Assembly (NCBI GenBank): GCA_016876035.1
Contig: VGOE01000002.1
Span: forward strand, 1,231 to 65,230
DNA length: 64,000 nt
DNA from: Chloroflexota bacterium
GTDB lineage: Bacteria > Chloroflexota > Dehalococcoidia > UBA2247 > RBG-13-53-26
Direction: 5' to 3'
The stretch's first letter is position 1, and every line of letters starts with the position of its first letter. The position numbers and the translations under genes are program-made. Positions 120 through 14,711 of this stretch are shown in pieces. The notes under the pieces were generated by a model. The model saw only the letters and a program-made list of their open reading frames with translations, searched no databases and was not told where the DNA came from.

Positions 120-2093
120 CTATGCAAGTAGCCCTCTCTGTTCCAAATCTGTGGCAATGTCTTCGAGACCTAGCTCCTCGAGCGTTTTCCTGGTCTGAAG
201 GCCTGTGGCCACATCCCAGCGCCTGAGCTGGTAATAGTCGCTTTTCATCCTCTCGAACGCCTCCCTGTCAACTACCGCGCCCTTCCGGGATATCACCTCT
301 CCGTCTTTGCCCGGCACCAGGCACTCAGGGTTCGACATCTCATATTGCAGGGGCACAGTATAGCAGTGGTCTGGAACCTGATCGGAATCCCGTCCCCCAT
401 GCCCCTCCCTGACTGCTATGGCCCTCAGCAGATTAAAGACTCTTTCGCCGATACCATCCAGTTCCTCTTTGTCTACCGCCACGCCGGTAACAGCAGAGAG
501 AATCTTGCTTTCTATTGTGGGGTCTCCCACGTGATCCTCCGATGATTCCAGGTCCATGATGGGCGACTGGAAATCACACAGGATAAGGCACTCCTTGGCT
601 GTCTGGCGATTCTGTATCTTCTTTGCGCCCAGCGCCTTTCCTTCGTAGGTGGAGAAATCTGCGGCCAACTCACTGCCCCAGAATCTGGCAGCAATCGCCC
701 GGGCGACACCGCTGGAGGCCAGGGCACCTTCACTTCCTTTGGCCCACAACAGCCACTTGGGTATGAGGGCACCAACCTCATGGAGTTGCACATTGGGTAG
801 TCTCGGCCCGATAGCGTACAGCAAGGCGGTGAGCGGATAGAGTCTCGGCCCATAAGTGTCGGTGTAGGCAGGGCCAGCCAGGTAGCCGATGGTATTCACC
901 TGCTCTAAAGCAGCAGGCCCTAGAGAATGAGCCGCTTTGGCCACCCCTTGAGCCAGTAGGTCTCCCAGACCTTCACGAAAGGATATTCTGTGGAACAAGG
1001 CATCCACAAACTCCAGAGTCCCCGCTTTAGATATGGGGATGCCCGCACTCTCGTCCGTCAGCACTCCAGCCCTGTAGCAGGATATAAGCCAGCCTATCAT
1101 GCGCTCAATACCCTTGGTGTCCAGCCCATAGTCATCGCAGAGCCTGGTGGCGTGGAAGGGCAAATCGCTGGGCATGTCCTTCCACGCTCCGTAGTACCAC
1201 ACAGCGTAGGGTTGATAGAACATGGCGGAGTGGCACATGTACTTGCCGGCCGAGCCGTTTTCAGCCTCATAGATTCCGCGAAAGCAGCCGGTGCAGCCGT
1301 AGCACGGGTCGAGCCGCTTCATCTTGTGGCTGAGGCTGGGCACCACGTCCCTCGAATAGCGCACTCCTGACATGGGGCCGCGGATTCTGCGCAGCCCACG
1401 GCGGTAGGCCTCCAGCTCCCGCAGCCTCTCTGGCTGGGCTACCTTCACGCCTTTGTCATCGCTCTGGACTGCAATTGCCTTTAGCCGCTTCGAGCCCATG
1501 ACGGCCCCCAGCCCCCCGGCACCGCAGGCATCGTTGTCGGCCACAATGGTAGCCATGACGGCCATGTTTTCGCCTGCTGGGCCGACGGCAGCGACGCTGG
1601 CTGAATTTCCTAACTCACCCTTAAGAATCTCCCCGGTCTTGACAGCGCCCTTCCCCCATAGTGCTGAAGCGTCCCTTATCTCGGCTACGTCATTGTGGAC
1701 GAAGAGGTAAACGGGCCTCTCAGATTTACCTTGAACTACGAGGGCGTCATAGCCAGCAAATTTGAGGTGTGCCCCCCACATCCCCCCGAGATTGCCATAG
1801 CAGAATTGCTCTGGAGTAGGAGCAGGCGATTTCCCACAAATCTGCCATCTGGAGCCGCCATTCAACCCGCGCACACCGGTCAAAGGCCCGGTGACGAACA
1901 CCAGCCTATTGTCTTCATGAAGAGCACCAACTTCTGGTGAGACCTGATCCCAATGTATCTTAGCAGCGAGGCCCCTGCCGCCCAGAAACCGGTCAACATA
2001 GTCCAGGTTGGACATCGTGGAGGCGGTCCCCGAGGACAAGTCCACCGTGAGTATCCGCCCGGCATATCCGAAATCTGCGCCTTTTGTGGTCAT
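120..2093 (-). CDS. Aldehyde:ferredoxin oxidoreductase (tungsten AOR family). The start is called at internal Met22 (MTTKGADFGYAGRIL), which has an AAAGGAGA Shine-Dalgarno sequence; the ORF-track start at 2156 is probably an upstream extension.
   Basis: The 678-aa ORF has AOR-family N-terminal (GRILTVDLSSG...) and C-terminal domains. The Shine-Dalgarno sequence lies 6-8 nt upstream of the ATG at 2093. Confidence 0.85.
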   Translation of the reverse strand: MTTKGADFGYAGRILTVDLSSGTASTMSNLDYVDRFLGGRGLAAKIHWDQVSPEVGALHEDNRLVFVTGPLTGVRGLNGGSRWQICGKSPAPTPEQFCYGNLGGMWGAHLKFAGYDALVVQGKSERPVYLFVHNDVAEIRDASALWGKGAVKTGEILKGELGNSASVAAVGPAGENMAVMATIVADNDACGAGGLGAVMGSKRLKAIAVQSDDKGVKVAQPERLRELEAYRRGLRRIRGPMSGVRYSRDVVPSLSHKMKRLDPCYGCTGCFRGIYEAENGSAGKYMCHSAMFYQPYAVWYYGAWKDMPSDLPFHATRLCDDYGLDTKGIERMIGWLISCYRAGVLTDESAGIPISKAGTLEFVDALFHRISFREGLGDLLAQGVAKAAHSLGPAALEQVNTIGYLAGPAYTDTYGPRLYPLTALLYAIGPRLPNVQLHEVGALIPKWLLWAKGSEGALASSGVARAIAARFWGSELAADFSTYEGKALGAKKIQNRQTAKECLILCDFQSPIMDLESSEDHVGDPTIESKILSAVTGVAVDKEELDGIGERVFNLLRAIAVREGHGGRDSDQVPDHCYTVPLQYEMSNPECLVPGKDGEVISRKGAVVDREAFERMKSDYYQLRRWDVATGLQTRKTLEELGLEDIATDLEQRGLLA

Positions 2094-2257
2094 CGCTATC
2101 TCCTTTTCGTTTGGGACTTCGTGGGACATCTTATCCCATGAACATCGCCCCAGCATCTCATGAAGTGAGACCCTTAGCTACGCTCAGGGTGACAGCATCA
2201 ATAGGTGTCATTCTGATCCGTCCGCAGGCGGAGAAGAATCTGGGTTGTTGGGCAGAA

Positions 2258-2719
2258 CTAGCCCTCCGTGGCGAACTTCTCCTTGTGCACATGTTTCACG
2301 ATTGTTCTCTTTATTTTCCACTCGCCCTTTTCCTTCACATACTCGTCTTCATAGTAGCCGTAGCCCCTGGTCCCTTTGCCGTTCTGGCGATTGAGCAAGT
2401 AGTCGTTTAGCGCCCATGTGGCCCTGGCGGTTGTGTTGCTGGTTATTTCAATCTCAGCATTGTGACCATGGTGTACAGTCACGATATGGTCCACACCCAG
2501 TCCTTGCTTCAAGAAATCCACAATGGGCTTCCCACCTTCAACGAAGATGTTTCGCTCGTGTTCTGCCAGCACGGCATCCGCGGTAAAACAGCCGACCATT
2601 TCGTCCCAGAGCTTCGTGTCAAGGAAGCGAAAATACCTGGCCTTCAGTTTCCTGATAGCCTCGATTTCCTCCAGAGCGCGGGGCTTTTCACTCGTTTCTC
2701 TACTTGCTGACTCAGACAT
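2258..2719 (-). CDS. SnoaL-like / NTF2-like domain protein (about 153 aa). The long 378-aa ORF is trimmed to the internal Met that has a GGAGG Shine-Dalgarno sequence.
   Basis: The C-terminal 153 aa (MSESASRETSEKPRALEEIEAIRKLKARYFRFLDTKLWDEM...) look like a SnoaL polyketide-cyclase-like fold. The upstream 225 aa are Cys/Arg/Gly-rich, look non-coding, and overlap the promoter region of the divergent SDR gene. Confidence 0.6.
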   Translation of the reverse strand: MSESASRETSEKPRALEEIEAIRKLKARYFRFLDTKLWDEMVGCFTADAVLAEHERNIFVEGGKPIVDFLKQGLGVDHIVTVHHGHNAEIEITSNTTARATWALNDYLLNRQNGKGTRGYGYYEDEYVKEKGEWKIKRTIVKHVHKEKFATEG

Positions 2720-3037
2720 GTTGGTATCCTCCCTTCGAATTCCTTCAATTCGTAAGCGGGCTGTAAGTGTTCTGGACACACCTCTCATAGGGACAGAGAC
2801 ACCCTGTTGTGTGTGCCCCCATTCTAGTCGCTTGCCTTCCCATCCGTCAATCTCGCTCATAGCATTAACAACTCCGTGCAGGGCATGCCGCCTCGCTTCG
2901 ATGTGCCGTGACTGTCGCGGCAGTCTTGCCCCGGTTGTAGCCGAAATCGGATATGGTGCGTAAGTTGACAGCCCGCAGTGCTTCCCATATCCTACGGGCG
3001 TGGGAAAGACATTATTGCCAGAAAGGAACGTGAAACT

Positions 3038-3844
3038 ATGGGCAGGCAGACAATAGCCGAACTCTTCGACCTGAAGGGGAAGGGTGCTGTGGTGACCGGT
3101 GGCGCCATGGGCATCGGGCAAGCCATCGCCTTCAGACTGGCCGAGGCTGGCGCCAACGTTATGATCACCGATATCGCAATGGAGGCAGCCAACCAGACGG
3201 TAGAGCAGATTAAGGCCACAGGAGGCAAAGCCTGGGCTATTCAAGCCGACGTCAGTTCGGCTGCCGACGCCAGGAAGATAGCAAAGACTGCAGTAGAGGT
3301 ACTGGGCAGCCTGGACATACTGGTCAACAATGCGGGCGTCTACCCCTGGTCGCCTGTCATGGAGATCACGGAACAGATGTGGGACAGAACACACGATATC
3401 AACCTCAAAGGGGTCTTTTTCTGTTCCCAGGCAGCGGCTACGGAGATGATCAGAGCTGGCCGCGGGGGAAAGATCATCAACATAGCCTCGAAAGACGGCA
3501 TAAACCCAGGGGGCAATGCTGCAGCCTCATACGTTGCCTCCAAGGGCGGAGTGATCATGCTCACCAAGGCCCTGGCACTGGAACTGGCACCTCATAATAT
3601 CCTGGTCAATGCCGTGGCCCCAGGTGGCATTGTGACGCCAGGTGGCAAAGGAATGGCGCGCGACCTCAGAGCGAAAGGGGTGGACCTCGTGGAAGTGGGC
3701 AAGAGGGCCAAGGAGCGCACGCCCTTGGGCCACGCCGGCGAACCTGATGATATTGCCAAGGTGGTACTCTTCTTGGCCAGTGCGGCGGCGGACTATATGA
3801 CCGGCAGCCTGCTGCTGGTGGACGGAGGATACCTGTTATCGTAA
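3038..3844 (+). CDS. SDR-family short-chain dehydrogenase/reductase
   Basis: It has the TGGAMGIGQAIA Rossmann motif, an NNAG motif and Y/K catalytic residues. Start MGRQTIAELF is preceded by AAAGGAA. It is a paralog of 24323..25129. Confidence 0.85.
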   Translation: MGRQTIAELFDLKGKGAVVTGGAMGIGQAIAFRLAEAGANVMITDIAMEAANQTVEQIKATGGKAWAIQADVSSAADARKIAKTAVEVLGSLDILVNNAGVYPWSPVMEITEQMWDRTHDINLKGVFFCSQAAATEMIRAGRGGKIINIASKDGINPGGNAAASYVASKGGVIMLTKALALELAPHNILVNAVAPGGIVTPGGKGMARDLRAKGVDLVEVGKRAKERTPLGHAGEPDDIAKVVLFLASAAADYMTGSLLLVDGGYLLS

Positions 3845-4081
3845 TTAGGCGAGGCCATGTCTCAGCAGATGGGTTCTCAATGCGGCATTGAACTCAAGGT
3901 TGATATCACCCATTTCTGGGAAACATTCCTTGGGCAACTATGCCGACTCGGTTCCCCGCCTTCGCCCCCCTAAATTCTTATAAAATCTTTATAACTTTTT
4001 CGTACCTTCCTCGTGCCTTTTTGTAGACAATTGCGTACCGTTGTGTTCAAATATAGTTTCGTTGTGTGAACACTGTGGGTT

Positions 4082-4103
4082 AAGTGACATAAGTCAATCA
4101 CTT
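4082..4103. promoter_or_regulatory. A perfect 6-bp inverted repeat AAGTGA-N10-TCACTT lies in the roughly 500-bp 5' region of the cNMP operon; nearby TGTGA motifs make it a candidate operator.
   Basis: The repeat was read directly at 4082-4103. A TGTGAACACTGTGGG motif lies just upstream at about 4065-4080. The regulator is unknown. Confidence 0.25.
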
Positions 4104-4339
4104 GTGAGATGGGCTATCGTGGCAATATTCCTTAACAATATACGCTTCACGATGGGCGAGAGTGATTAGTTGCCATTGGGCAGCGTGAAGTGCCAAAGCA
4201 GCCACTGGCAGCAGTGCTGAGATTAACTGGCTTCGTTCGGCATGAAAGTCTGAGTTGTCAAACATACTCGATGGCACAGTATTGACAATCTCTAGATCGG
4301 TAGCGCACCTGAAACCGTCGGCAGAGGGGTGATCTTGAA

Positions 4340-4732
4340 ATGGTTGAGCTTCCTTATGATAGGTTCATACGGGCTTATACCAAGGACGATATGGTATTCA
4401 AGGAGAACAACCCCGGGAAAGAAATGTTCATCGTCCGTTCAGGGAAGATACACCTGTATAAGGAGCGGCAAGATGGAAGAATCCTCCTCGCCGCTGTTCA
4501 CGAGGGAGAGTTTTTTGGGGAGATGTCTCTCGTGGATAACAGTCCTCGGTCTGCCACTGCCATCGCCGCTGAGGATACCGAGCTCATTGTTCTCGACGAA
4601 CCAAAGTTCCTTTATCTTCTCCACCACCAACCCGAGTTTGCTCTGGTCGTCATGCAAAAACTGTGCGAGACTCTGCGTCGGGTGACGGATGGATGGGCGC
4701 ACGAAAGACAAAATGGAAACATCCTTCCCTAA
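4340..4732 (+). CDS. Stand-alone cyclic-nucleotide-binding (CAP-effector-type) domain protein with no DNA-binding or other output domain
   Basis: It carries the canonical phosphate-binding cassette FFGEMSLVDNSPRSATAIA. It is only 130 aa. Confidence 0.75.
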   Translation: MVELPYDRFIRAYTKDDMVFKENNPGKEMFIVRSGKIHLYKERQDGRILLAAVHEGEFFGEMSLVDNSPRSATAIAAEDTELIVLDEPKFLYLLHHQPEFALVVMQKLCETLRRVTDGWAHERQNGNILP

Positions 4733-5477
4733 AGAACTGAGACCCAATATATATCAGCTACCGGCAGAAAAACCTGGGAGCCATGTCTACCTCATAAAAG
4801 GAGAAGCCAAGAATCTACTCATCGATACTGGGGTTACCGCCAAGTTCGCTCAGCTTGCCAGCCAGTTGCAGAAATTGGGCCTGGGTGTAAAGGATATACA
4901 TTTCGTCATTCTCACTCACGAACACTTCGACCACATAGGGGCCACCACCTTTTTCGATACGGCGGTTATTGCGGCTCACGCCCTGGCCGCAAACAAGATC
5001 GAACTTCAAGATGAGTTTGTAACCTACAACAAATACTTCAATATTCCCTCCAAGCCTTTCTATGCCAACCTCTGGCTGGAGGACAAGATACTGGTAGACC
5101 TGGGCAACTATAAGTTACAGGTACTTCATACCCCGGGACACAGCTCAGGATGCATCTGTCTCTATGAGCTTAGGGAGAAGGTGCTTTTCTCCGGAGATAC
5201 CGTTTTCTCTGGCGGGCTTCTTTCAGATATTGGTAGCTCGGGTAATATCAGCGACTATGTAAGTTCGTTACAGCGATTGGCTAATCTCAAAGTGGAAGCG
5301 CTTTACCCTGGACACGGGCCTATCTCTTCTGCTCCTGGAGAAGACATCAGTCGAGCGGTGGCATACGCCCGCACGATGATGGAGGAATCGAAACTACTTT
5401 TTGAAGCCCTGGCGAAGAGCGAGTCCCGACTGAAGGTCTTGAAAAAGTTTGGTAAGAAGCCTATTCAAACGGAATAA
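4689..5477 (+). CDS. MBL-fold metallo-hydrolase. The start is ambiguous between 4689 and 4713, and the ORF overlaps the 3' end of the cNMP-binding gene.
   Basis: It has the THEHFDHIG (HxHxDH) motif and downstream His/Asp ligands (HTPGHSSG, SGD). It may be translationally coupled to the upstream gene. Confidence 0.75.
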   Translation: MDGRTKDKMETSFPKELRPNIYQLPAEKPGSHVYLIKGEAKNLLIDTGVTAKFAQLASQLQKLGLGVKDIHFVILTHEHFDHIGATTFFDTAVIAAHALAANKIELQDEFVTYNKYFNIPSKPFYANLWLEDKILVDLGNYKLQVLHTPGHSSGCICLYELREKVLFSGDTVFSGGLLSDIGSSGNISDYVSSLQRLANLKVEALYPGHGPISSAPGEDISRAVAYARTMMEESKLLFEALAKSESRLKVLKKFGKKPIQTE

Positions 5478-6567
5478 CGCGCCCGGCTACAAGAGCCAGA
5501 AGTGGAGGTGGACCATCAAACTGGGAAAATTTGCACTAGGCATAGTCGGTTCACTGGCGATAGTACTCCTCGGTATTCATTTCCTCCTTCCCTCCTTTTC
5601 CCGCTCGGCTCTCTCTCTTCCTCTGTCAACGAAACTAACTGTCATCTCGCATGATGTGTTTGTGAAAGAGGGGGATTCGGGAAATTGGGAGAGGATAGCA
5701 ACAGAGGCAAGCCTAAAAGAAGGGAACTGGGTGAAGACTTCCTCCAAAGGGCGGGCTGTTATCACCTTCTTCGAAGGTAGCTCCACCGAGATTGAGCCTG
5801 ATACCGTTGTCTGCCTTGAAGAATTGTTCTCAACTCTCAAAGGTTCCAGCACAATAAGGCTGAATCAGCAGGCGGGCCACACATGGAGCAGCGTGGGAAG
5901 ACTCTTTGACCCAGCGTCACGCTTTGAGGTAACGACGACAGCGGCTGCAGCAGTAGTGCGAGGCACACTTATTGGTATTGATGCAGAAGAAGATGGACAC
6001 ACTACAGTCAAGGTTTTTGCAGGCGAGGCAGGGGTCAGAGGTGAAGGGCATGAGGTAACTGTATCTGCTGGCTGGCAAACCACAGTCAACCCTGGTCAAC
6101 CACCATCCCCTCCCTCCCTGATCCCTCCCCCATCACGCCAGCTCACCGTGTCTATAGGCTTATCTGCCTGGCTTCAGATAATTGACCCCCTGGGCAGAAA
6201 CACCGGCATGATTCCCCCGGGGTTCGGGGTTAACCGGATCCCCTTTAGCATTACCACGATTGCCGCCGAGGAGCAAACTGTGACTATAAATGATCCTGTG
6301 GCTGGAAAATATTTCATTGCCTTTTATGCGCAGGATAATGGCTCAGTTCGAGTGACTGCCAAGGCCACTTCACAGAATGGGTTCAGTCAGCAAGAAAACC
6401 GAGAATTGGAGGTTAAGAAAGGCTGGGGTTACTACATTTCACTGGAACTGGATGTTGATGAGCAAGGGGTTATCACGTCTCTGGTTTCTGGGGAGGTTAG
6501 GGCCCTGGAGCCTGGCTTCGTCGCCGACAAGTTTTATGGCATCAAATACAGGCCTTATGACTCATGA
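5449..6567 (+). CDS. FecR-domain membrane protein, the usual partner of CHASE2 sensors. The only in-frame start is a TTG at 5449.
   Basis: A single N-terminal TM helix (FALGIVGSLAIVLLGIHFLL) is followed by a FecR-like region (VITFFEGSSTEIEPDTVV), then a Pro-rich linker and an uncharacterised C-terminal domain of about 150 aa. It lies directly upstream of the CHASE2 cyclase. Confidence 0.6.
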   Translation: MVRSLFKRNNAPGYKSQKWRWTIKLGKFALGIVGSLAIVLLGIHFLLPSFSRSALSLPLSTKLTVISHDVFVKEGDSGNWERIATEASLKEGNWVKTSSKGRAVITFFEGSSTEIEPDTVVCLEELFSTLKGSSTIRLNQQAGHTWSSVGRLFDPASRFEVTTTAAAAVVRGTLIGIDAEEDGHTTVKVFAGEAGVRGEGHEVTVSAGWQTTVNPGQPPSPPSLIPPPSRQLTVSIGLSAWLQIIDPLGRNTGMIPPGFGVNRIPFSITTIAAEEQTVTINDPVAGKYFIAFYAQDNGSVRVTAKATSQNGFSQQENRELEVKKGWGYYISLELDVDEQGVITSLVSGEVRALEPGFVADKFYGIKYRPYDS

Positions 6568-6651
6568 CAGTTTCCAACCGAATGCCGGAACATAAGGAGG
6601 ACCAGATGTGCTTGTCTGCCAATGCCTTATTGGGATTAGGGACGAGCTAAC

Positions 6652-8436
6652 ATGTTTTCCTATCTAAAAAGCCTTCTACGAAAAGGGACGAGAAAACAAA
6701 GGAGGTTACGAAACCACTCTCTAATCCTGTTGAGCTTAGGAGTAGTTTTTGGGCTGATTGTCTTTTCCATCCAGCCCTTCAGTAGCTTCAATTGGCGGCT
6801 TAAGGATTCTCTCTTCAACTCCAGAGCACCTACACCTGACATTGTCATTGTTGCCATTGACGACGAGACCTTACAGACTTACGGAAGGCTGGGCGACTGG
6901 TCCCGTTCCCTGCACGCCCAGGCCATAGATAATTTGAAAGCAGCCCAGGCAGAGGTAATCGGCTTTGATGTGCTATTCGCCGAGCCAGCAGAGGGCGATA
7001 CCGACCTGGAAGCAGCGATATCGGATGCCGAGAATGTCATCATGCCGGTTGTGGGTACTGGTCTTTTGAAGACAAAAGGAGAGGTTGTCTTCAATGATTT
7101 TGTTACCCCCACCACGGCTTTTTCCAGTGTCCCCGCCGCTCTCGGGCATGTTAACGTGCTTGTTGATGGTGACGGGACGGTACGCCGCCTCCCTGTCATC
7201 GCTAGTGATGTTTCTGGGGGAACCTATTCCTCTTTCTCCACAGCCATAGTTTCGGTGGCACGGGGCGAGCCTCCCCCCGATATCCCTACGGACAGCTCCA
7301 GGGGCATGCGCATTAATTATGTTGGTGGTCCTGGATCCTTTCCCCGCATCTCCTATAAGGACGTGATCACGGGGGATTTCGACCCACGGTTAGTTAGAGG
7401 AAAGATAGTGCTTATTGGCACAACCGCTGTAGGTAGTGGAGACTTGTTTAGCACCCCTGCCCCTGGTGGGCAAATGTATGGCGTCGAAGTACACGCAAAC
7501 GCCATAGATACCATTATCACAGGTAAATTTGTTGCCGATTCCGGGGGTGGAATTACTTTGCTGGCCATCCTCCTCACGGCAGCAGTATGTGGCGTGTTTC
7601 TGCCGCGATTGACGTTGCGGAGGAGCGGCCTGCTCACCGCGGCACTCCTCGGAGCCTTCATTGGGGCTGTTATTGTGTGTTTTGGCAAAGGCTATATGCT
7701 AGACATCATTTACACCCCAATAGCACTCGCCCTCTTCTTCGTAGGCGTGGTCCTCTGCCGCGTGACCGCTGAGATGGCCGATAGGCAGGAGGTCACCGGC
7801 CTTTTCGGCAAGTATGTCTCCCCGCAGGTTGCCGGGGCTATCATTGCGATGGCTGATAAGGATGAGCTGACTCTCACTGGCGAGAAACGTGAGGTAACGG
7901 TCCTTTTTGCGGATATGCGTGGGTTTACCAAACTCAGTAGCGGACTGGAGCCTGGTAAGGTCGTTGACATACTCAACACCTACTTTTCAGTTATCATCGA
8001 TTGCATCAATGCCAATGGCGGAATGGTTAATAAGTTTGCTGGTGACAACATAATGGCCATCTGGAACGCTCCCCAGAGCCAGCCAGAGCACGCTTTTCTG
8101 GCGGTCAAGGCAGCTCTTGAGAGCCAAAAAGCCATAGACGAGCTCAACCGAAAGTCAGGTCATGTTTCCCCGGTGGAATTTGGCATAGGTATCAATACTG
8201 GGGAGGCGACCGCTGGGAGCATAGGTTCCAAAGGAAGAGCGGAATACAGTGTAATTGGAGATACGGTTAACCTTGCGTCACGTATTTGCGGCGCTGCACC
8301 CGGAGGGCGAGTCTGGATAGGTTGGCAAAGTTATAAGAAAGTAAAGGAGAACGTGGTGGCAAGCCAACTCGAACCACAACACTTCAAGGGGAAAGAGGAG
8401 GCTTTTGCGGTTTATGAGGTAAGAGCCCTCGTGTGA
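6652..8436 (+). CDS. CHASE2-sensor adenylate/guanylate cyclase (class III nucleotidyl cyclase)
   Basis: An N-terminal TM helix and a periplasmic CHASE2-like domain are followed by three or more TM helices. The C-terminal cyclase domain carries LFADMRGFTKLS, KFAGDNIMAIWNAP and GINTGEATAG motifs. Confidence 0.85.
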   Translation: MFSYLKSLLRKGTRKQRRLRNHSLILLSLGVVFGLIVFSIQPFSSFNWRLKDSLFNSRAPTPDIVIVAIDDETLQTYGRLGDWSRSLHAQAIDNLKAAQAEVIGFDVLFAEPAEGDTDLEAAISDAENVIMPVVGTGLLKTKGEVVFNDFVTPTTAFSSVPAALGHVNVLVDGDGTVRRLPVIASDVSGGTYSSFSTAIVSVARGEPPPDIPTDSSRGMRINYVGGPGSFPRISYKDVITGDFDPRLVRGKIVLIGTTAVGSGDLFSTPAPGGQMYGVEVHANAIDTIITGKFVADSGGGITLLAILLTAAVCGVFLPRLTLRRSGLLTAALLGAFIGAVIVCFGKGYMLDIIYTPIALALFFVGVVLCRVTAEMADRQEVTGLFGKYVSPQVAGAIIAMADKDELTLTGEKREVTVLFADMRGFTKLSSGLEPGKVVDILNTYFSVIIDCINANGGMVNKFAGDNIMAIWNAPQSQPEHAFLAVKAALESQKAIDELNRKSGHVSPVEFGIGINTGEATAGSIGSKGRAEYSVIGDTVNLASRICGAAPGGRVWIGWQSYKKVKENVVASQLEPQHFKGKEEAFAVYEVRALV

Positions 8437-8485
8437 GCCTCCTCGGCAAGAACACATAACACTGGCTATCAGGAGGAAGACAAAG

Positions 8486-10246
8486 ATGTCATTCTTAAGC
8501 GCGTTACAGGGTGAGGAACTCACTATCTTAGAACAGTACCTCAGCCCTGTGCACTTCCCGCGCAACAGTTGCATTATGCGCGAAGGTGATCCAGGCGATG
8601 GGTGCTACATTATTGATGCCGGAACAATCCGTCTTGAGCTACAGAACGTGGAAACGGATACGGATAGTGTCCTGGGCTATTTGGAGGCAGGATCGTTTCT
8701 AGGGGAGTTCAGTTTGCTTGATGGCAGACCGCGATCTGCGACTGCTTACGCACACACAGACGTCAAAGGGCGCTGGTTCTCCAAGCAGAGTTTTGAAGAA
8801 ATGTGCCAGCAACATTCTAGAGTTGGCTTGATGATATCAATGGCTTTGGGTCAAGACCTTGCCACAAAACTGCGTGACTTTAACAAAAGACTTGCTGGTT
8901 ACATATTCGCCGATCAGATTGACGAGGATACAAACCGGATGGTTGCCCGCGCTGTAAAGGCCCAACAACATTTTGAAGAGTGGCCAGAAGACCGTGTCGA
9001 CGCCTTGCTACAGGATGTATCGCAATCCATAGCGGCACACGCTCAAGAGTTGGCCGAAGCAAATGTGGCCGAAACAGGCATAGGCAATGTTGAAGATAAG
9101 ATAACTAAGATCCGGTTTGCCAGCCTTGAGGTGTACAGAACGATAGCCGGCCGTTCGGCTGCGGGGCTACTCAGGACAGACGCACAAACCCGTGTTACGG
9201 AGATCGCCAGCCCGGTTGGGGTTGTACTCGGTCTAATTCCTGTGACAAATCCCGTGTCTACCGTTGTTTTCAAGGTTCTCGTCACTCTCAAAGGACGAAA
9301 TGCCGTCATTCTCAGTTGTCATCGCGATGCTTTGAAAGTCGGCGGCCAGGCGTGCGATATCATCCGGGATGTACTGGAGCGGCACGGAGCGCCAAAGGAT
9401 CTGGTGCAAACGGTGTGGCGACGAGCTAGCAGGCAGAAAACGATGATGTTTATGCATCACCCCGACGTTAAGCTCATTTTGGCGACTGGTGGCACGAGTA
9501 TGGTGAAAGCTGCCTATAGCTCTGGCACCCCCGCTATCGGGGTCGGCCCGGGTAATGCTCCCGTCCTGATTTGCGCCGATGCCGATTTAGCCAAGGCCGC
9601 ATCAGCAATCATTCAGAGCAAGTCCTTTGACAACGGCGTTATCTGCGGATCCGAAAACAACCTGGTTGTTGTTGCTTCGGTTCGTGATAGTTTCGTCGAA
9701 TCGCTGGAGGCGCATGGTGCAATCATACTGCGACCAGATGAGAAGAATCGCTTTGCTGCACAAGCCTTCGATCATGAGTCTTCAACTCTGAAGAAATCCA
9801 TCGTCGGCAAGTCTGCCCAGTTCATTGCTGACTTGACTGGTGTCCGCCGAGGCAAAGATGTCCGGCTAATTGTCATTCCTATAAGGCAAGATGAACTTCG
9901 AGGTCCCTTTGGACATGAAAAGCTGGCCCCTGTTCTCTCTCTGGGCACAGTGAAAGACGAGGAAGAAGGTCTTCAGGTCTGCAGGCAGATTCTGCTCAAC
10001 CAGGGGCAAGGGCATACAGCCATTATCTATACCGAGAATCAAGAACTGATGCAACGGTTTGGTCGCGAGATCCCGGCCAGCCGAGTTTTGGTCAATGCAC
10101 AAGGTGCTCAGGGTTGTGTCGGCCTCGGCACCGGCCTGACCCCGTCCTTTACACTAGGTTGCGGGACATTCGGGGGCAATTCCACGACCGACAATGTGAC
10201 CTATACGCACCTGATCAATGTTAAGAGGCTAGCCCTTAACCTGTAG
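8486..10246 (+). CDS. Fusion of an N-terminal cNMP-binding domain to an AdhE/EutE-type CoA-acylating aldehyde dehydrogenase domain
   Basis: The N-terminal 140 aa carry the cNMP-binding cassette (FLGEFSLLDGRPRSATAYA). The remainder resembles the ALDH half of AdhE, including FDNGVICGSENN with the catalytic Cys, and GVGPGNAP. A strong AGGAGGA Shine-Dalgarno sequence precedes the start. Confidence 0.8.
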   Translation: MSFLSALQGEELTILEQYLSPVHFPRNSCIMREGDPGDGCYIIDAGTIRLELQNVETDTDSVLGYLEAGSFLGEFSLLDGRPRSATAYAHTDVKGRWFSKQSFEEMCQQHSRVGLMISMALGQDLATKLRDFNKRLAGYIFADQIDEDTNRMVARAVKAQQHFEEWPEDRVDALLQDVSQSIAAHAQELAEANVAETGIGNVEDKITKIRFASLEVYRTIAGRSAAGLLRTDAQTRVTEIASPVGVVLGLIPVTNPVSTVVFKVLVTLKGRNAVILSCHRDALKVGGQACDIIRDVLERHGAPKDLVQTVWRRASRQKTMMFMHHPDVKLILATGGTSMVKAAYSSGTPAIGVGPGNAPVLICADADLAKAASAIIQSKSFDNGVICGSENNLVVVASVRDSFVESLEAHGAIILRPDEKNRFAAQAFDHESSTLKKSIVGKSAQFIADLTGVRRGKDVRLIVIPIRQDELRGPFGHEKLAPVLSLGTVKDEEEGLQVCRQILLNQGQGHTAIIYTENQELMQRFGREIPASRVLVNAQGAQGCVGLGTGLTPSFTLGCGTFGGNSTTDNVTYTHLINVKRLALNL

Positions 10247-10363
10247 AAGAAGGCCTTTTTCGGCTAGACCAATTCCTGAAGGCATGGGAGGAATATCTAG
10301 GGTAATGGACCATCCACCACGAATGTTCGCACACTTGGCTCATTCATTTGTGCTGATCACGAA

Positions 10364-10795
10364 CTAAAGCGCGTAGATCTCTTTGCCAAAAGTGCGAACC
10401 CAGTTCCTCTCCAGAACCTTCAGCGCTTCTTCGATCCTATCGACGCCAAGAATGACAATGGCTTGCCCGCTTTCTCCTCTGCCTAGGTAGGGGTAAAGGT
10501 GCAGTACATTGATGTTAGCTGCTTTTAGAGGCTTGAGCACCGCCTGAAGGCCGCCAGGATGGTCTGGGACCTCTACGGCAATGACATCAGTCTCCTTAAC
10601 GTAATATCCCTGGCTCTGCAGGACATTGACAGTCTTGGTGGGGTCATCAGTGACAAACCTCACAGTGCTAATGTCAGTGGTGTCGGCCACTGAGATTGCC
10701 CTGATGTTTATCCCTTCAAGGCCTAACCGCTCACTCACCTCCAGAAGCTTCCCTGGCACATTTTCCAGGGTAACCGAAATCTGTTTTACAAACAT
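10364..10795 (-). CDS. Tandem ACT-domain protein, last gene of the four-subunit OFOR operon
   Basis: It contains two ACT-like beta-alpha-beta-beta-alpha-beta units (VTLENVPGKLLEVSERLGLEGINI, VEVPDHPGGLQAVLKPLKAANINV). Confidence 0.7.
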   Translation of the reverse strand: MFVKQISVTLENVPGKLLEVSERLGLEGINIRAISVADTTDISTVRFVTDDPTKTVNVLQSQGYYVKETDVIAVEVPDHPGGLQAVLKPLKAANINVLHLYPYLGRGESGQAIVILGVDRIEEALKVLERNWVRTFGKEIYAL

Positions 10796-10825
10796 GCCAT
10801 ACCCCCCAATTTGTCCGTATATGAA

Positions 10826-11356
10826 CTAAAGGAGATCGCATCCTGCCATCAGGGCTTTACTGTCGATGGTGATCAGTTTCGTCTTATCCTTCAAGGTGCT
10901 CTTCAGTCCTTCAACTAAGGCACCAATGGAGACCAAGTTGCTCTTCTTGATGAATGCCCCCATCATCACCATGTTGGCCGATCTGGGACTGCCCAACTCC
11001 TCGGCGATACGACTGGCCGGAATCCCCAAAAGCTCGATATCTCCCCGGGAAACCTCCGCTTTGATCAGAGACGAGTTGAAGAACAAAGCACCGCCTGACT
11101 GGACCTTATTTTGGAATCTGATCAAGGAGGGTTGATTCATGGCAACAACGAGATCCGGAGCCGAAGCCACTGGTGAGGCAATCTCTTCATCTGATATGGC
11201 CACCGTGCAGTTGGCGGTACCCCCTCGGACCTCAACACCATAGGAGGGTAAATAGGTGACGTATTTCCCTTCAACCATGGCTGCCTGAGCCAGAACAAGG
11301 CCCATGGAGAGGACTCCCTGACCTCCAAAGCCAGCGAAGATCGTCTTAATCAGCAT
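10826..11356 (-). CDS. 2-oxoacid:ferredoxin oxidoreductase, gamma subunit
   Basis: The GFGGQGV motif is typical of POR/VOR gamma subunits. Confidence 0.8.
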   Translation of the reverse strand: MLIKTIFAGFGGQGVLSMGLVLAQAAMVEGKYVTYLPSYGVEVRGGTANCTVAISDEEIASPVASAPDLVVAMNQPSLIRFQNKVQSGGALFFNSSLIKAEVSRGDIELLGIPASRIAEELGSPRSANMVMMGAFIKKSNLVSIGALVEGLKSTLKDKTKLITIDSKALMAGCDLL

Positions 11357-12101
11357 CCTTTTGTCCAGTGAGATCCTTCATGACTCCCATCGGAAACTCT
11401 TTGATCATCTCTTTGCCAATCCATTGCCAAGACTCTAACGGGTCCCTCTTCCAATTGATGGGACACGGAGAGAGTATCTCCACCAGTGAGAAACCCAGAT
11501 CATCGAGCTGCACCTGAAAAGCCTTGCGGATGGCTCTTTTCGTCCTTCTGATGTTGGCCGGAGAATCCACCGCTGTTCGCTCAACATAGACCACGCCTCT
11601 GAGCATTGCCAGCATCTCGCTCACTCTGATGGGATATCCTTCCAGCCTGGCATCCCGTCCCAGAGGAGTGGTGGTGGTCTGTTGGGCCAGCAGGGTAGTC
11701 GGAGCCATCTGCCCACCAGTCATTCCATAAACGGCATTATTGACGAAAATGGCTGTTATCCTTTCCCCTCTGTTGGCAGCGTGGATGGTCTCTGCAGTGC
11801 CGATGGCTGCCAGATCACCGTCCCCTTGGTAGGTAAACACTATTGTTTCAGGAGAAGCCCTTTTTAGGCCGGTAGCTACTGCCAGCCCTCTGCCATGGGC
11901 CGATTCTGCCATATCAAGATCAAGATAGTTGTAGGCGAAGACGGAGCAGCCAGCCGAGTTGACCCCGACAATCCTGTCTTGAAGGTTCATCTCTTCGATA
12001 ACTTCAGCCACCAGTCGATGGATAATCGAATGCCCGCAGCCCGCACAGTAATGAAAAGGAGTTCTCTTCAGCAATTTGGGTCGGCTATATACCTTTTCCA
12101 T
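11346..12101 (-). CDS. 2-oxoacid:ferredoxin oxidoreductase, beta (TPP-binding) subunit
   Basis: It has a CAGCGH iron-sulfur motif and a GDGD TPP/Mg motif. Confidence 0.85.
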   Translation of the reverse strand: MEKVYSRPKLLKRTPFHYCAGCGHSIIHRLVAEVIEEMNLQDRIVGVNSAGCSVFAYNYLDLDMAESAHGRGLAVATGLKRASPETIVFTYQGDGDLAAIGTAETIHAANRGERITAIFVNNAVYGMTGGQMAPTTLLAQQTTTTPLGRDARLEGYPIRVSEMLAMLRGVVYVERTAVDSPANIRRTKRAIRKAFQVQLDDLGFSLVEILSPCPINWKRDPLESWQWIGKEMIKEFPMGVMKDLTGQKDAD

Positions 12102-12108
12102 CTCTCTG

Positions 12109-13176
12109 TTACTTGAGACCTTTCTGATAGTAATGGCGTGAGATTACCCGTAGAACCTCGCTGGGAGTGGGGATTACTCCTCCTGGCCTCCCGTAAAAGA
12201 AGACCTCCCCTTTGCCGTTCAAGGCCAGTTGCACATCCTCCAGCATCTGGCCCATGTTCAACTCGAAGTCCAGGAAGTACTTCGTCCTATTGGCGAGTTC
12301 CTCCACCTTGTTGGAAGGGAACGGCCATAGTGTGATGGGTCGAAACAGGCCAACCTTCAGGCCACTGGCACGCGCATTCTTAACCGCGCCGCGCGCAATG
12401 CGGGCCGCTATGCCAAAAGCCACCACAATCAGCTCAGCATCCTCAACCAGGAACGTTTCACAGGCAGTCTCTTCTTCCCTGATTAGCTGATATCTCCTGT
12501 ACAAGCTCCAGTTGATTTCCTCCATCTCGCTCGGGTTTGACGTACAGGTCTTGACAATCCGTCTCGGACGTCCCTTTGCTCCTCTTAAGGCACTGCTCCT
12601 TACTGGCAACCTTTCAGGAGGTTCGTGTTTGAATTCTACTGGCTCCATCATCTGCCCCAGCACCCCATCCGCCAGGATGATCACCGGAATCCTATACGTG
12701 TCGGCCAGGTCGAAAGCCCGATGAGTCATGTCTGCCAGTTCCTGTACCGATGAAGGCGCCAGAACTATGGTTCGATAGTCCCCGTGCCCCCCACCCTTGG
12801 TGGCCTGGAAATAATCTGACTGTGCAGCAGATATAGTTCCCAAGCCCGGCCCGCCCCGGGATATGTCGACAATAACAGACGGAAGCTCACAGCTTGCCAA
12901 ATAAGAGATTCCTTCCTGTTTGAGGCTCATTCCCGGACTAGACGAAGATGTCATTACTCTGACCCCGGCCAGGCTGGCTCCGAATACCATGTTTACGGCA
13001 GCAATCTCACTTTCCGCCTGAATGAAAGTACAGCCTTTCCTCTTGCTCAGGTGAGTAGCCATGTACTCGGTCAGTTCGTTCTGAGGGGTGATGGGGTAAC
13101 CAAAATAGCACTGACAGCCAGCCCTGATGGCGGCTTCTCCAACCACGCTGTTGCCATCCATGAGAACCTTAGCCAC
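12109..13176 (-). CDS. 2-oxoacid:ferredoxin oxidoreductase, alpha subunit
   Basis: The 355-aa alpha-subunit-like protein overlaps the delta gene by 8 nt. Confidence 0.85.
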   Translation of the reverse strand: MAKVLMDGNSVVGEAAIRAGCQCYFGYPITPQNELTEYMATHLSKRKGCTFIQAESEIAAVNMVFGASLAGVRVMTSSSSPGMSLKQEGISYLASCELPSVIVDISRGGPGLGTISAAQSDYFQATKGGGHGDYRTIVLAPSSVQELADMTHRAFDLADTYRIPVIILADGVLGQMMEPVEFKHEPPERLPVRSSALRGAKGRPRRIVKTCTSNPSEMEEINWSLYRRYQLIREEETACETFLVEDAELIVVAFGIAARIARGAVKNARASGLKVGLFRPITLWPFPSNKVEELANRTKYFLDFELNMGQMLEDVQLALNGKGEVFFYGRPGGVIPTPSEVLRVISRHYYQKGLK

Positions 13177-13378
13177 GGTAAACCTCTATTACGACCTCTG
13201 GGCAGACTAAGGCACAGATAGCACAGCCTGTGCACTCGCCGCTATCGCTGAAGGACGCGGGTGTATAGCCGCTGGCATTGAGTTTGTCGGACAGAACGAT
13301 CACGCTCTTCGGGCAGAAGGCTATGCAGGTCTGGCATCCCTTGCATAGCTCTTGGTCAATCTCAATATATCCCTTCAC
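13169..13378 (-). CDS. 2-oxoacid:ferredoxin oxidoreductase, delta subunit (2x[4Fe-4S] ferredoxin)
   Basis: It has two CxxCxxCxxxCP motifs in 69 aa. Confidence 0.8.
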   Translation of the reverse strand: MKGYIEIDQELCKGCQTCIAFCPKSVIVLSDKLNASGYTPASFSDSGECTGCAICALVCPEVVIEVYRG

Positions 13379-13538
13379 ACCTATCTCTGTCCTTTAACCT
13401 TCAACGTGAACGATCTATAACTCCGTATTATCCTATTCCGGATTACGTCAGACGTCAAACGGCTAGCTTCTTGTGAGTTTGATCTGGTGTGTTTCATCTT
13501 TTGCGGAAGGAACTTCCTCGTCCATCAGGTCTGGAAGC

Positions 13539-14510
13539 TTATCTCTTGTTCCTGAAGTAATCTATGTATCCTGAAGGATTCGTAAGGATTGAGTCCGGGA
13601 GTCTGGCTTTCGGTGAGCAGCTTTCGACATATTTGGAGATACGTTCCATTATTCCGAGGTCATCCTCGCCTGCCTGAACAGCCTCCTGGACAATCTTGGC
13701 AAAAGCGATACTGTTCTCCTTTACTTGACGAATAAGCTGGTTGTCCACATTGTCCCTGACTCCTTGGTGGGAATAGAAGAGAAGCCTGGGAGAAAGCTTC
13801 TCCAGCCTCCTTATCGTGTCCAGGTATGCGTCGGGATCAAACGGAGGGATTCCCGCCGGCAATACGACATCGGGCGCGCTGTCCAAGGGAAACCCCAGTG
13901 CCTCACCACAGAATAAGCCACCAGTTAGACTATCCAGTATGGAGATATGATGTGAAGCATGTCCTGGCGAGAATAGTATTCTCAGCGCCCTTTTCCCTAG
14001 CCGAATTTCTTCACCATCGCGGGCGATGTGAATCTGGCCTTGCGGGATAGGCAGAATAGGACCAAAACCCTCTTCGAAGTTGTCGCCAAAGGCCAGGCGG
14101 GTGCCCTGGATAAGTCTTGAGGGGTCTATCATGTGCGTTGCACCCTTGGGATTGAGAACCACCTTTGTCTGAGGGAGTCTCTGGGCTAGATAGCCTGCCC
14201 CACCTCCATGATCCACGTGTATATGGGTGGGAATTATGTATGAGACTTCGTCAAGATGCAGGCCGAGCCTCTCTGAATCGTCAAGCAGCCTTGAAGCGGC
14301 AACTGCCGCACCTGGCTCAATCAGTACCGAGGTGTGGTCAACCACCAGGTAGGCCACCTGAGGCATCATGAAGAAGGGGACTTTTCCGCAGTCAAGCAGG
14401 TATGTAGCCGGAGCTACCTCTTTGATCTCAACTGTCATTCTTGAGACTTGTGGACCACCCTCTACAGCTAATGATAGCACAAGTTCCAGGCAATTCATAA
14501 TCTTAGACAT
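13539..14510 (-). CDS. MBL-fold metallo-hydrolase (second copy in the window)
   Basis: It has the HIHVDHGGG motif. The start is uncertain between Met1 and Met25. Confidence 0.7.
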   Translation of the reverse strand: MSKIMNCLELVLSLAVEGGPQVSRMTVEIKEVAPATYLLDCGKVPFFMMPQVAYLVVDHTSVLIEPGAAVAASRLLDDSERLGLHLDEVSYIIPTHIHVDHGGGAGYLAQRLPQTKVVLNPKGATHMIDPSRLIQGTRLAFGDNFEEGFGPILPIPQGQIHIARDGEEIRLGKRALRILFSPGHASHHISILDSLTGGLFCGEALGFPLDSAPDVVLPAGIPPFDPDAYLDTIRRLEKLSPRLLFYSHQGVRDNVDNQLIRQVKENSIAFAKIVQEAVQAGEDDLGIMERISKYVESCSPKARLPDSILTNPSGYIDYFRNKR

Positions 14511-14711
14511 GAGGGGTGGCGCCGTGTCTACTCTCGACTCATATCGTCTCTCAGGGTGGGCCTAAGCTTGGCTCAATGCTAAAGCAGAAGGTTGCTGTGC
14601 GCCTCACAACTGGCTATTGTAATACCTCCGACTTCTAGCTATAATATTTCCCGTATTTGGCAGCCAGGCAGAGGATTTGCTATTGTCATGTATCTACAAT
14701 GGTGGTGAGAA

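Follow-up and report, generated by a model that had tools for sequence, protein, structure and literature searches.

Five adjacent genes on the plus strand of a Chloroflexota contig (VGOE01000002.1), lying within the 64-kb stretch that was analysed as a whole (hereafter the window), raise the question of whether a membrane cyclase, two cyclic-nucleotide-binding (CNB) domains and two enzymes belong to one signalling system, and what that system might control. A preliminary description had assigned the five genes their domains and proposed that they are linked through a cyclic nucleotide. The assignments were confirmed: all five open reading frames (ORFs) lie where described, their Pfam matches all exceed the respective gathering cut-offs, and public gene calls on two independent assemblies (JGI 3300020083 and SRR7008372; same organism) give identical gene models. 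The proposed link is borne out by the joint recurrence of the CNB, metallo-beta-lactamase (MBL), FecR and CHASE2 cyclase genes, by single-chain fusions of CNB and MBL, and by the cyclase, CNB or MBL neighbours that the fifth gene, a fusion of CNB and aldehyde dehydrogenase (ALDH), keeps in its close relatives. We therefore consider it likely that the cluster is a cyclic AMP (cAMP) signalling module in which enzymes, and not transcription factors, would serve as receptors. The domains, the catalytic and ligand residues, the topology, the recurrence of the neighbourhood and the Rosetta-stone fusion are direct observations. The genes are as follows (aa, amino acids; cNMP, cyclic nucleoside monophosphate).

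4340-4732, plus strand: cNMP-binding (CNB) protein, ORF1, 130 aa (PF00027 cNMP_binding, 85.7 bits)
4689-5477, plus strand: MBL hydrolase, ORF2, 262 aa, with an HEHFDH motif (PF00753 Lactamase_B, 124.7 bits)
5449-6567, plus strand: FecR single-pass membrane protein with a C-terminal domain of no recognised type (PF04773 FecR, 37 bits)
6652-8436, plus strand: CHASE2 class III cyclase, 594 aa (CHASE2, 199.4 bits; Guanylate_cyc, 85.2 bits)
8486-10246, plus strand: predicted CNB-acylating ALDH fusion, 586 aa (PF00027, 63.7 bits; PF00171 Aldedh, 115.7 bits)

The MBL belongs to a family of more than 120 clusters at 59% identity or above, stand-alone among the matches listed, and we examined five homologue loci on different long contigs (57-61% identical by alignment, 60-66% by local tblastn). 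A CNB gene lies directly upstream of the MBL gene in all five, with junctions ranging from a 4-nucleotide (nt) overlap to a 33-nt gap; FecR-like sequence is likewise present in all five, and a CHASE2 cyclase in four. The components are orthologous across these loci (CNB 47-62%, FecR 34-40%, cyclase catalytic domain 56-62%) and are arranged as CNB-MBL-FecR-cyclase, as FecR-cyclase-CNB-MBL, or divergently, with the ALDH fusion at none of the five. CNB, MBL, FecR and CHASE2 cyclase form the conserved core of a recurring Chloroflexota-type module and, because this core occurs without the ALDH, the CNB-ALDH protein is best read from these sequences as an accessory receptor recruited in one subclade. 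Of the gene order set out in the preliminary description, the four-gene core is thus what recurs, but the order of all five genes is not conserved and the fusion stands near the core only in relatives of at least 72% identity.

Close relatives of the fusion, at 73-91% identity, occupy 11 distinct loci outside the window, on contigs that are often short; eight of them carry a class III cyclase on the same contig, and five a small CNB gene, an MBL orthologue or an MBL remnant. In L083, L088 and L090 the gene immediately upstream of the fusion, in the same orientation, encodes a CHASE2 cyclase. L085 has a divergent operon of Rrf2, FecR and CHASE2 cyclase upstream of the fusion, L003 and L092 have a convergent cyclase downstream of it, accompanied by FecR or not, and L087 has a cyclase with a 5TM-5TMR_LYT sensor 5.4 kb away. 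An MBL orthologue (63% identical) directly follows the fusion in L088, a divergent CNB-MBL pair precedes it in L109, and L089 and L107 have a small CNB gene upstream of it. A metagenome scan with the single fusion protein gave seven informative close loci, the remainder being non-fused ALDHs. Right after the fusion, L085 (9887-10084; also L086, 9159-9356) holds an MBL remnant that is 57.6% identical over 66 aa, and upstream of the fusion in L003 (4072-4316) a small CNB gene is spread across two reading frames; the two have the appearance of module parts that are in decay or were mis-assembled.

How the MBL would be connected to the signal is indicated by its longer homologues. Searching the family profile against 1.84 billion representatives revealed many members of 380-460 aa in which the MBL part starts near residue 135, and all nine of the long homologues tested carry cNMP_binding and Lactamase_B in one chain. 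ORF1 is colinear with the N-terminal half of these single-chain proteins (34-46% identity) and ORF2 with their MBL half (36-47% identity). Judged by this colinearity, ORF1 and ORF2 are a split form of the single-chain CNB-MBL family and, since such homologues exist, they almost certainly act as a complex that ties the MBL to the CNB ligand, with ORF1 as the predicted cAMP-sensing subunit of the hydrolase; we took this tie to rule out a housekeeping enzyme unrelated to signalling. The phosphate-binding cassette of ORF1, FGEMSLVDNSPRSATA (FGEMSL..PRSATA), retains Glu and Arg, and the canonical G-E...P-R-S-A cassette is found in both CNB domains of the window. Two receptors had been claimed for the cluster; both domains do carry the Glu/Arg cassette and pass the PF00027 cut-off, and ligand binding is a prediction. 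In the MBL, the ligands H77/H79/D81/H82, H151, D170 and H209 are invariant among 18 aligned family members, completing an HxHxDH/H/D/H metal site.

We also considered that a frameshift artefact might have split a fused CNB-MBL gene, and rejected this because independent assemblies give the same sequence and because the two genes are separate in six loci with differing junctions (overlap of 44 nt, gap of 18, gap of 33, overlap of 4, overlap of 4 and gap of 2). In a close member of the MBL family, P0242 (309 aa), an N-terminal 4Fe-4S ferredoxin domain replaces the CNB domain, a hint that this hydrolase may be regulated by other, redox-type inputs as well.

The second enzyme is also joined to a CNB domain, here within one chain. 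The cassette of the fusion reads LGEFSL..PRSATA, and its Glu74 and Arg83, together with Cys387, are invariant in the aligned fusion family. Residues 148-584 align with 5j78 (E = 1e-102) and with Escherichia coli AdhE, 6tqh (E = 3e-96), and the active-site segment SFDNGVICGSEN matches that of AdhE, TFDNGVICASEQ, sharing FDNGVIC(G/A)SE aligned at Cys387. We take the Cys of this motif to be the catalytic nucleophile of acylating ALDHs, and by these alignments the ALDH part is of the CoA-acylating, AdhE-N/EutE type. It falls short of the NCBIfam equivalog level for the EutE type (TIGR02518, 418.6 against 620.1) and of the AdhE model PRK13805 (468 bits against a cut-off of 951, the model also spanning the alcohol dehydrogenase half); because of these scores, its substrate may not be acetaldehyde.

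Homologues of the fusion make up more than 120 clusters of 586-aa proteins at 60% identity or above, and a scan of species-representative genomes gave 80 loci, 67 of them with a full-length CNB-ALDH. These full-length proteins occur in Chloroflexota, Planctomycetota/Verrucomicrobiota-type bacteria, Bacteroidota, Actinomycetota, Acidobacteriota, Myxococcota, Gammaproteobacteria (Oleispira, Bermanella) and other lineages. The catalytic Cys is kept in 79 of the 80 ALDH homologues; the canonical Glu/Arg cassette is kept in 44 of the 67 full-length proteins and degenerate in 23.

Several variants were seen within this family. Ten ALDH homologues lack the CNB domain (L048, L052, L055, L056, L058, L061, L065, L068, L078 and L080); they come from Acidobacteriota, several annotated as Vicinamibacterales, and from one gammaproteobacterium, and two of them, L052 and L058, have a Trans_reg_C plus alpha/beta-hydrolase protein next to the ALDH. 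The Oleispira/Bermanella homologues (L060-L081; e.g. L063, 2135-3151, and L077, 8580-9833) carry a Glu-to-Ala change in the cassette, and their flanking genes consistently encode a DUF6976 protein and a 417-aa protein that has no annotation. By clustering, the CNB-ALDH gene adjoins a type II NADH dehydrogenase in 17 of the 80 loci, from Bacteroidota/Ignavibacteria, Salinivenus and Solirubrobacterales/Actinomycetes (L012, L029, L035, L036, L038, L040-L047, L049, L050, L054 and L075; coordinates include L043 7078-8661, L047 11614-13422, L035 7761-9371 and L036 11781-13490). Four of the five such dehydrogenases scanned with Pfam carry a C-terminal CNB domain (Pyr_redox_2 + NDH2_C + cNMP_binding), the fifth, from L044, showing Pyr_redox_2 only; L035 additionally encodes a CNB-NTE_Ploop-Patatin protein (11648-13468). 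By domain content these loci are islands of CNB-linked metabolic enzymes. Many of the ALDH fusions beside an NADH dehydrogenase have an Arg-to-His change in the cassette. Neighbour cluster sizes are approximate, as greedy ORF calling gave spurious long ORFs in high-GC loci, and key neighbours were re-checked with Pfam.

On the sensor side, the proposed signal generator is indeed a CHASE2 class III cyclase with its catalytic residues, scoring well above the cut-offs of both domains (PF00211, 85.2 bits against 21.9; PF05226, 199.4 bits against 26.3). Hydrophobic segments at residues 22-40 and then at 299-317, 326-344 and 350-368 bracket a CHASE2 region of about 260 residues and give a topology of one transmembrane segment, CHASE2, three transmembrane segments and a cytoplasmic catalytic domain. 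The best relatives in the PDB are Cya2 and the Glu-to-Lys adenylate variant 6fht, with whose motifs FADMRGF, KFAGD and TVNLASR align, so that both metal-binding Asp residues and the transition-state Asn and Arg are present. The Lys of VNKFAGD corresponds to Glu in the guanylate cyclase Cya2 and to Lys in the engineered adenylate variant, and the second specificity position is Ser (YSVIGD) instead of the classical Asp/Thr. The product is predicted to be cAMP because of the Lys, with some reserve because of the Ser. Within L087 (10479-11732), the catalytic domain of the 5TM-5TMR_LYT cyclase is 70.6% identical to that of the CHASE2 cyclase in the window, which suggests that the sensor domain may have been swapped on the same catalytic module.

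The FecR protein has one hydrophobic segment, at residues 29-47, and its FecR domain should therefore be extracytoplasmic; we presume that it is a co-sensor of the CHASE2 cyclase. An anti-sigma role of the FecI/FecR/FecA kind was rejected, no sigma-factor or TonB-receptor domain being found in the nine long flanking ORFs scanned. By analogy with other CHASE2 clusters, FecR is here taken to be the partner of the cyclase.

In the mechanism that we propose, the membrane cyclase would detect an extracytoplasmic cue through its CHASE2 domain, probably in concert with the single-pass FecR protein, and the cytoplasmic class III domain would make cAMP, to be read by the two CNB domains with intact phosphate-binding cassettes. 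ORF1, made by coupled translation with the MBL, would bind cAMP and regulate the hydrolase as its subunit. On the acetylating ALDH, cAMP bound to the N-terminal CNB domain would tune the step from acetyl- or acyl-CoA to aldehyde allosterically. We infer cAMP as the ligand, allosteric control of the enzymes and a single transcript from the sequences.

The least certain point of this explanation is the substrate that the MBL hydrolyses. The preliminary description had made the protein a candidate degrader of the signal on the grounds that class II cAMP phosphodiesterases (PDEs) share its fold, an argument that did not survive: ORF2 has no PDEase_II match (PF02112, yeast Pde1/CpdP type) at E <= 0.01, and the profile of the anti-Pycsar PDE Apyc1 (PF23023) reaches 20.1 bits, short of its cut-off of 50, and covers residues 34-89 only, the region of HxHxDH. 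A glyoxalase II-type enzyme outside signalling, the opposite possibility raised there, fared in part: the nearest sequence is YcbL/glyoxalase II-like, but the glyoxalase II equivalog (TIGR03413, GSH_gloB) gives 58.2 bits against a cut-off of 200.8, and the CNB fusions tie the MBL to signalling. An ODP/flavodiiron-type sensor was considered as well, since PF19583 matches at 51 bits, above its cut-off, yet the motif of ORF2 is HxHxDH. Diiron proteins carry HxExDH, and ORF2 was treated as a hydrolase because of this difference.

Structural comparison points in a similar direction. The best sequence relatives of ORF2 in the PDB are YcbL (E = 4.8e-17, residues 70-216), TTHA1429, GOB-18 and LACTB2. 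An AlphaFold2 model (mean predicted local distance difference test score 76.7), with long C-terminal helices at residues 216-255, has TTHA1429, PqsE, LACTB2, B3 MBLs and YcbL as its nearest folds; PDE-type MBLs were not among the closest structural neighbours in this ranking. PqsE (a 2-aminobenzoylacetyl-CoA thioesterase) and the YcbL/glyoxalase II-like MBLs have the HxHxDH di-metal site in common with ORF2. However, identity is only 19-26%, no family cut-off is reached and only ORF2 has a dedicated CNB partner, the likeness being one of fold and sequence and not of substrate residues.

Gene context bears on the same question. Four related loci have a second MBL, of the Lactamase_B_2 type, beside the module (L111, 10417-11229, minus strand; L113, 7894-8664, minus; L087, 356-1126, plus; L112, 7798-8544, plus), and in three of the four it shows weak similarity to class II PDEs (26.1 bits in L113, the cut-off being 23.7). 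The copies of L111, L113 and L087 are orthologous, 44-67% identical to one another, and that of L112 is another Lactamase_B_2 MBL. In the related loci this protein is, by sequence similarity, likely to be a cAMP phosphodiesterase and a better PDE candidate than ORF2; the 64-kb window holds no homologue of it, and no class II PDE-like MBL, extra cyclase or extra CNB domain was found elsewhere in the window. In L116 (1091-4141) and L117 (75-3217), two independent contigs, the single-chain CNB-MBL gene lies directly downstream of the gene for a 620-aa AcetylCoA_hydro/AcetylCoA_hyd_C + GNAT protein, and a third fused CNB-MBL (P0249) has a GNAT neighbour and, at a distance of 6.6 kb, a CHASE2 cyclase. 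All three fused contexts therefore have an acetyl-CoA hydrolase/transferase-GNAT or GNAT neighbour.

We lean, tentatively, towards an output role for ORF2, as a hydrolase of the thioesterase/glyoxalase II/PqsE type that cAMP would gate, because the separate PDE-like MBL of related loci could be the PDE, and because of the acetyl-CoA/GNAT neighbours of the fused genes and the MBL orthologue that comes right after the acyl-CoA-forming fusion in L088. A less probable but still serious candidate is a cAMP-stimulated cAMP phosphodiesterase giving feedback, which would make ORF1 and ORF2 a split bacterial counterpart of GbpB/GbpA and the operon a generator with a self-limiting degrader and one enzyme receptor; what remains of our expectation goes to some other activity. 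The type IIb metallo-beta-lactamase phosphodiesterases GbpA and GbpB (PdeD/PdeE) of Dictyostelium have cNMP-binding domains of their own, through which they are activated (PMC11988041). Their domain content is exactly CNB plus MBL, and they offer a precedent for a cNMP-stimulated MBL and for feedback degradation, being likened to ORF1 and ORF2 by that content. They differ in having two CNB domains, against one in the bacterial CNB-MBL proteins, and in a reversed domain order, the CNB being N-terminal in the bacterial fusions and a separate subunit in the window; PDE activity of the bacterial pair is putative. The tight linkage of the CNB-MBL pair to CHASE2 cyclases, the PDE gene that joins CHASE2 cyclase and FecR in Campylobacterota (PMC9239204) and the lack of any other PDE candidate in the window also speak for a phosphodiesterase. 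Set against them are the absent PDEase_II match and the Apyc1 score of 20.1 bits against 50, confined to the HxHxDH region, the lactamase/glyoxalase II/PqsE types that fill the place of phosphodiesterase MBLs among the fold neighbours, the two PDEs per cluster that the separate class II PDE-like MBL of three to four related loci would imply, and the two of three fused forms that lie beside acetyl-CoA/GNAT genes and not beside cyclases.

That the genes are neighbours with no signal in common, the CNB ligand being a non-nucleotide or absent, the MBL serving in detoxification as an ordinary glyoxalase II-like enzyme and the ALDH in fermentation as a housekeeping enzyme, placed beside a signalling pair by chance, we regard as improbable. 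Source annotations of the MBL family do read 'hydroxyacylglutathione hydrolase' or 'glyoxylase-like', among 67 full-length fusion homologues of other lineages 23 have a degenerate cassette, and most distant fusion loci have no cyclase; but GSH_gloB reaches only 58 bits against its cut-off of 200.8, the fusion to CNB in nine of nine tested MBL homologues ties the family to the CNB ligand, both CNB domains of the window keep the canonical Glu/Arg cassette, and the components recur jointly across at least five gene orders. Less probable by far is a Pycsar-like antiphage system, in which a cyclic (pyrimidine) nucleotide would be made on infection and CNB effectors would respond. PADLOC matches the cyclase catalytic domain to PycC models (up to 91.4 bits) and the CNB protein to the CNB part of PycTIR effector models (33-36 bits), matches that reflect general homology among class III cyclases and CNB domains. 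The best solved relatives of the cyclase are adenylate/guanylate cyclases, and it is not soluble: it sits in the membrane, its CHASE2 sensor lies outside the cytoplasm, and FecR is its partner. The CNB partners are ALDH and MBL, with no TIR or membrane-disrupting effector, and the neighbours are metabolic, with no defence island.

Several observations weigh against a cAMP module with enzyme receptors as we have drawn it. A cyclase-like neighbour was seen in only about 10 of the 80 fusion loci, and the other four genes are mostly absent from the distant ones, which makes the linkage of the fifth gene specific to a clade and perhaps in part a product of common descent among closely related genomes. 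Class III cyclases may be numerous per genome, weakening loose proximity such as the 5.4 kb in L087, and the MBL context sample is small, five split and three fused loci. As the CRP/FNR superfamily illustrates, a domain of the CNB fold need not bind a cyclic nucleotide and may have a different ligand or no ligand at all. The Ser at its second specificity position leaves the nucleotide specificity of the cyclase not certain, and the thioesterase idea for the MBL comes from the ranking of folds and from the neighbouring genes, diagnostic residues playing no part in it.

A comparable gene cluster has been described in Campylobacterota, comprising a CHASE2 adenylate cyclase, a cAMP phosphodiesterase, a FecR-domain protein and a tetratricopeptide repeat (TPR) protein (Mo et al., mBio 2022, PMC9239204), and its authors also inferred a common pathway from gene clustering. 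It resembles the window in placing a CHASE2 class III cyclase beside a FecR protein and a hydrolase for which action on the signal has been proposed. In contrast, the window has no TPR protein, a PF00753 MBL with its own CNB subunit in place of an identified PDE, and an added enzyme-fused receptor, CNB-ALDH; its FecR is a single-pass membrane protein in a Chloroflexota-type host, whereas that of Campylobacterota is outer-membrane-associated. In Sinorhizobium meliloti, a FecR-domain protein is a Clr target (PMC5498481). The pairing of FecR with CHASE2, noted as known from the outset, is thus on record, even in a cluster with a PDE (PMC9239204), and a generator, a degrader and FecR in one cluster are not new in principle, nor are CNB-regulated enzymes. 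The wider view that this is not a described system stands for the rest: in a literature search that left most subscription journals outside its scope, we found no description of a CNB-acylating ALDH family, of a bacterial CNB-MBL family, split or fused, or of any linkage of CNB-ALDH or CNB-MBL to a sensor cyclase.

Among CNB-enzyme fusions, mycobacterial Pat is a cAMP-regulated protein lysine acetyltransferase of CNB-GNAT architecture. Like the window fusion, it has an N-terminal CNB domain on an acetyl-CoA-related enzyme, with cAMP acting post-translationally and not via CRP, but its catalytic partner is a GNAT domain where the window protein has a predicted acylating ALDH. NCBIfam NF058543 matches the CNB parts of the window proteins. 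The N-domain of AdhE and stand-alone acetylating ALDHs (6tqh, 5j78) resemble the fusion in full-length alignment and in the active-site segment, and differ from it in lacking the extra N-terminal CNB domain of 145 residues with its linker; the fusion, in turn, has no alcohol dehydrogenase domain.

CRP-type control of transcription dominates bacterial cAMP biology, and to our knowledge direct control of enzymes by cAMP is documented in only a few cases, such as mycobacterial Pat. More speculatively, and with less confidence than we place in the module itself, the main action of cAMP or a related cNMP in many non-model bacteria might be to switch acetyl-CoA, aldehyde and NADH metabolism directly and allosterically, through CNB-linked enzymes, the window being the most complete example of a sensor-to-enzyme route that bypasses transcription. 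The enzymes concerned would be CNB-acylating ALDH, split or fused CNB-MBL and type II NADH dehydrogenases with a C-terminal CNB domain, whose genes would cluster with one another and, in Chloroflexota, with the FecR/CHASE2 sensor cyclase. The analysis defines two large enzyme families with built-in or dedicated putative cNMP receptors, CNB-acylating ALDH and CNB-MBL hydrolase, and ties both to an extracytoplasmic sensor cyclase in one lineage. Should the acetyl-CoA/aldehyde branch point indeed be gated by cAMP, abundant uncultured anaerobes would have a rapid, post-translational means of controlling their fermentation and redox balance. For the CNB-MBL pair there would be two possibilities: a counterpart, the first in bacteria, of the cNMP-stimulated MBL phosphodiesterases of Dictyostelium, or a hydrolase of a new kind under the control of cAMP. 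All proteins of the module are soluble or have soluble domains, which makes these predictions accessible in vitro.

The layout of the cluster is consistent with joint expression, and two further features belong to it.

3845-4339, no strand assigned: intergenic leader of 495 nt with lower GC content, presumed promoter/regulatory region (ORF map and composition)
6606-6650, plus strand: mini-ORF MCLSANALLGLGTS of 14 codons, preceded by AAGGAGG at 6594-6600 (sequence reading)

The first four genes had been said to overlap, which holds for CNB/MBL (44 nt, or 20 nt with an alternative ATG at 4713) and for MBL/FecR (29 nt, given a FecR start at TTG 5449, the sole start codon upstream of its transmembrane segment), but not for the cyclase, whose earliest start at 6652 follows the FecR end at 6567 after an 84-nt spacer. 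The mini-ORF lies inside this spacer with its stop 1 nt before the cyclase ATG, and the cyclase start itself has no good Shine-Dalgarno sequence. The mini-ORF may have a role in translational coupling or as a leader; no equivalent was found upstream of seven related cyclases. A 49-nt spacer separates cyclase and fusion, with AGGAGG 9 nt ahead of the fusion ATG, and the next gene downstream of the cluster is convergent. Scanning revealed no internal promoter- or terminator-like signals above chance in the cluster, no promoter-like sites above chance in the 495-nt leader, where repeats were limited to short pairs at chance level, and no Rfam match within 3400-10800; CRP-like sites were uninformative (19 matches in the window against 25.8 expected). 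A single transcript for the five genes is plausible from this arrangement.

The metabolic genes that flank the cluster are not conserved in relatives, and we therefore gave them little weight. To the left (120-3844) are an aldehyde:ferredoxin oxidoreductase (120-2156, minus strand), a SnoaL-like protein and a short-chain dehydrogenase/reductase (2978-3844, plus strand). To the right (10364-16178) are an ACT-domain protein, three 2-oxoacid:ferredoxin oxidoreductase subunits (10364-13176, minus strand), an MBL (13539-14510, minus strand) and a radical SAM protein. These genes suggest a setting of anaerobic aldehyde/acyl-CoA metabolism, compatible with an acetyl-CoA/aldehyde node of fermentation.

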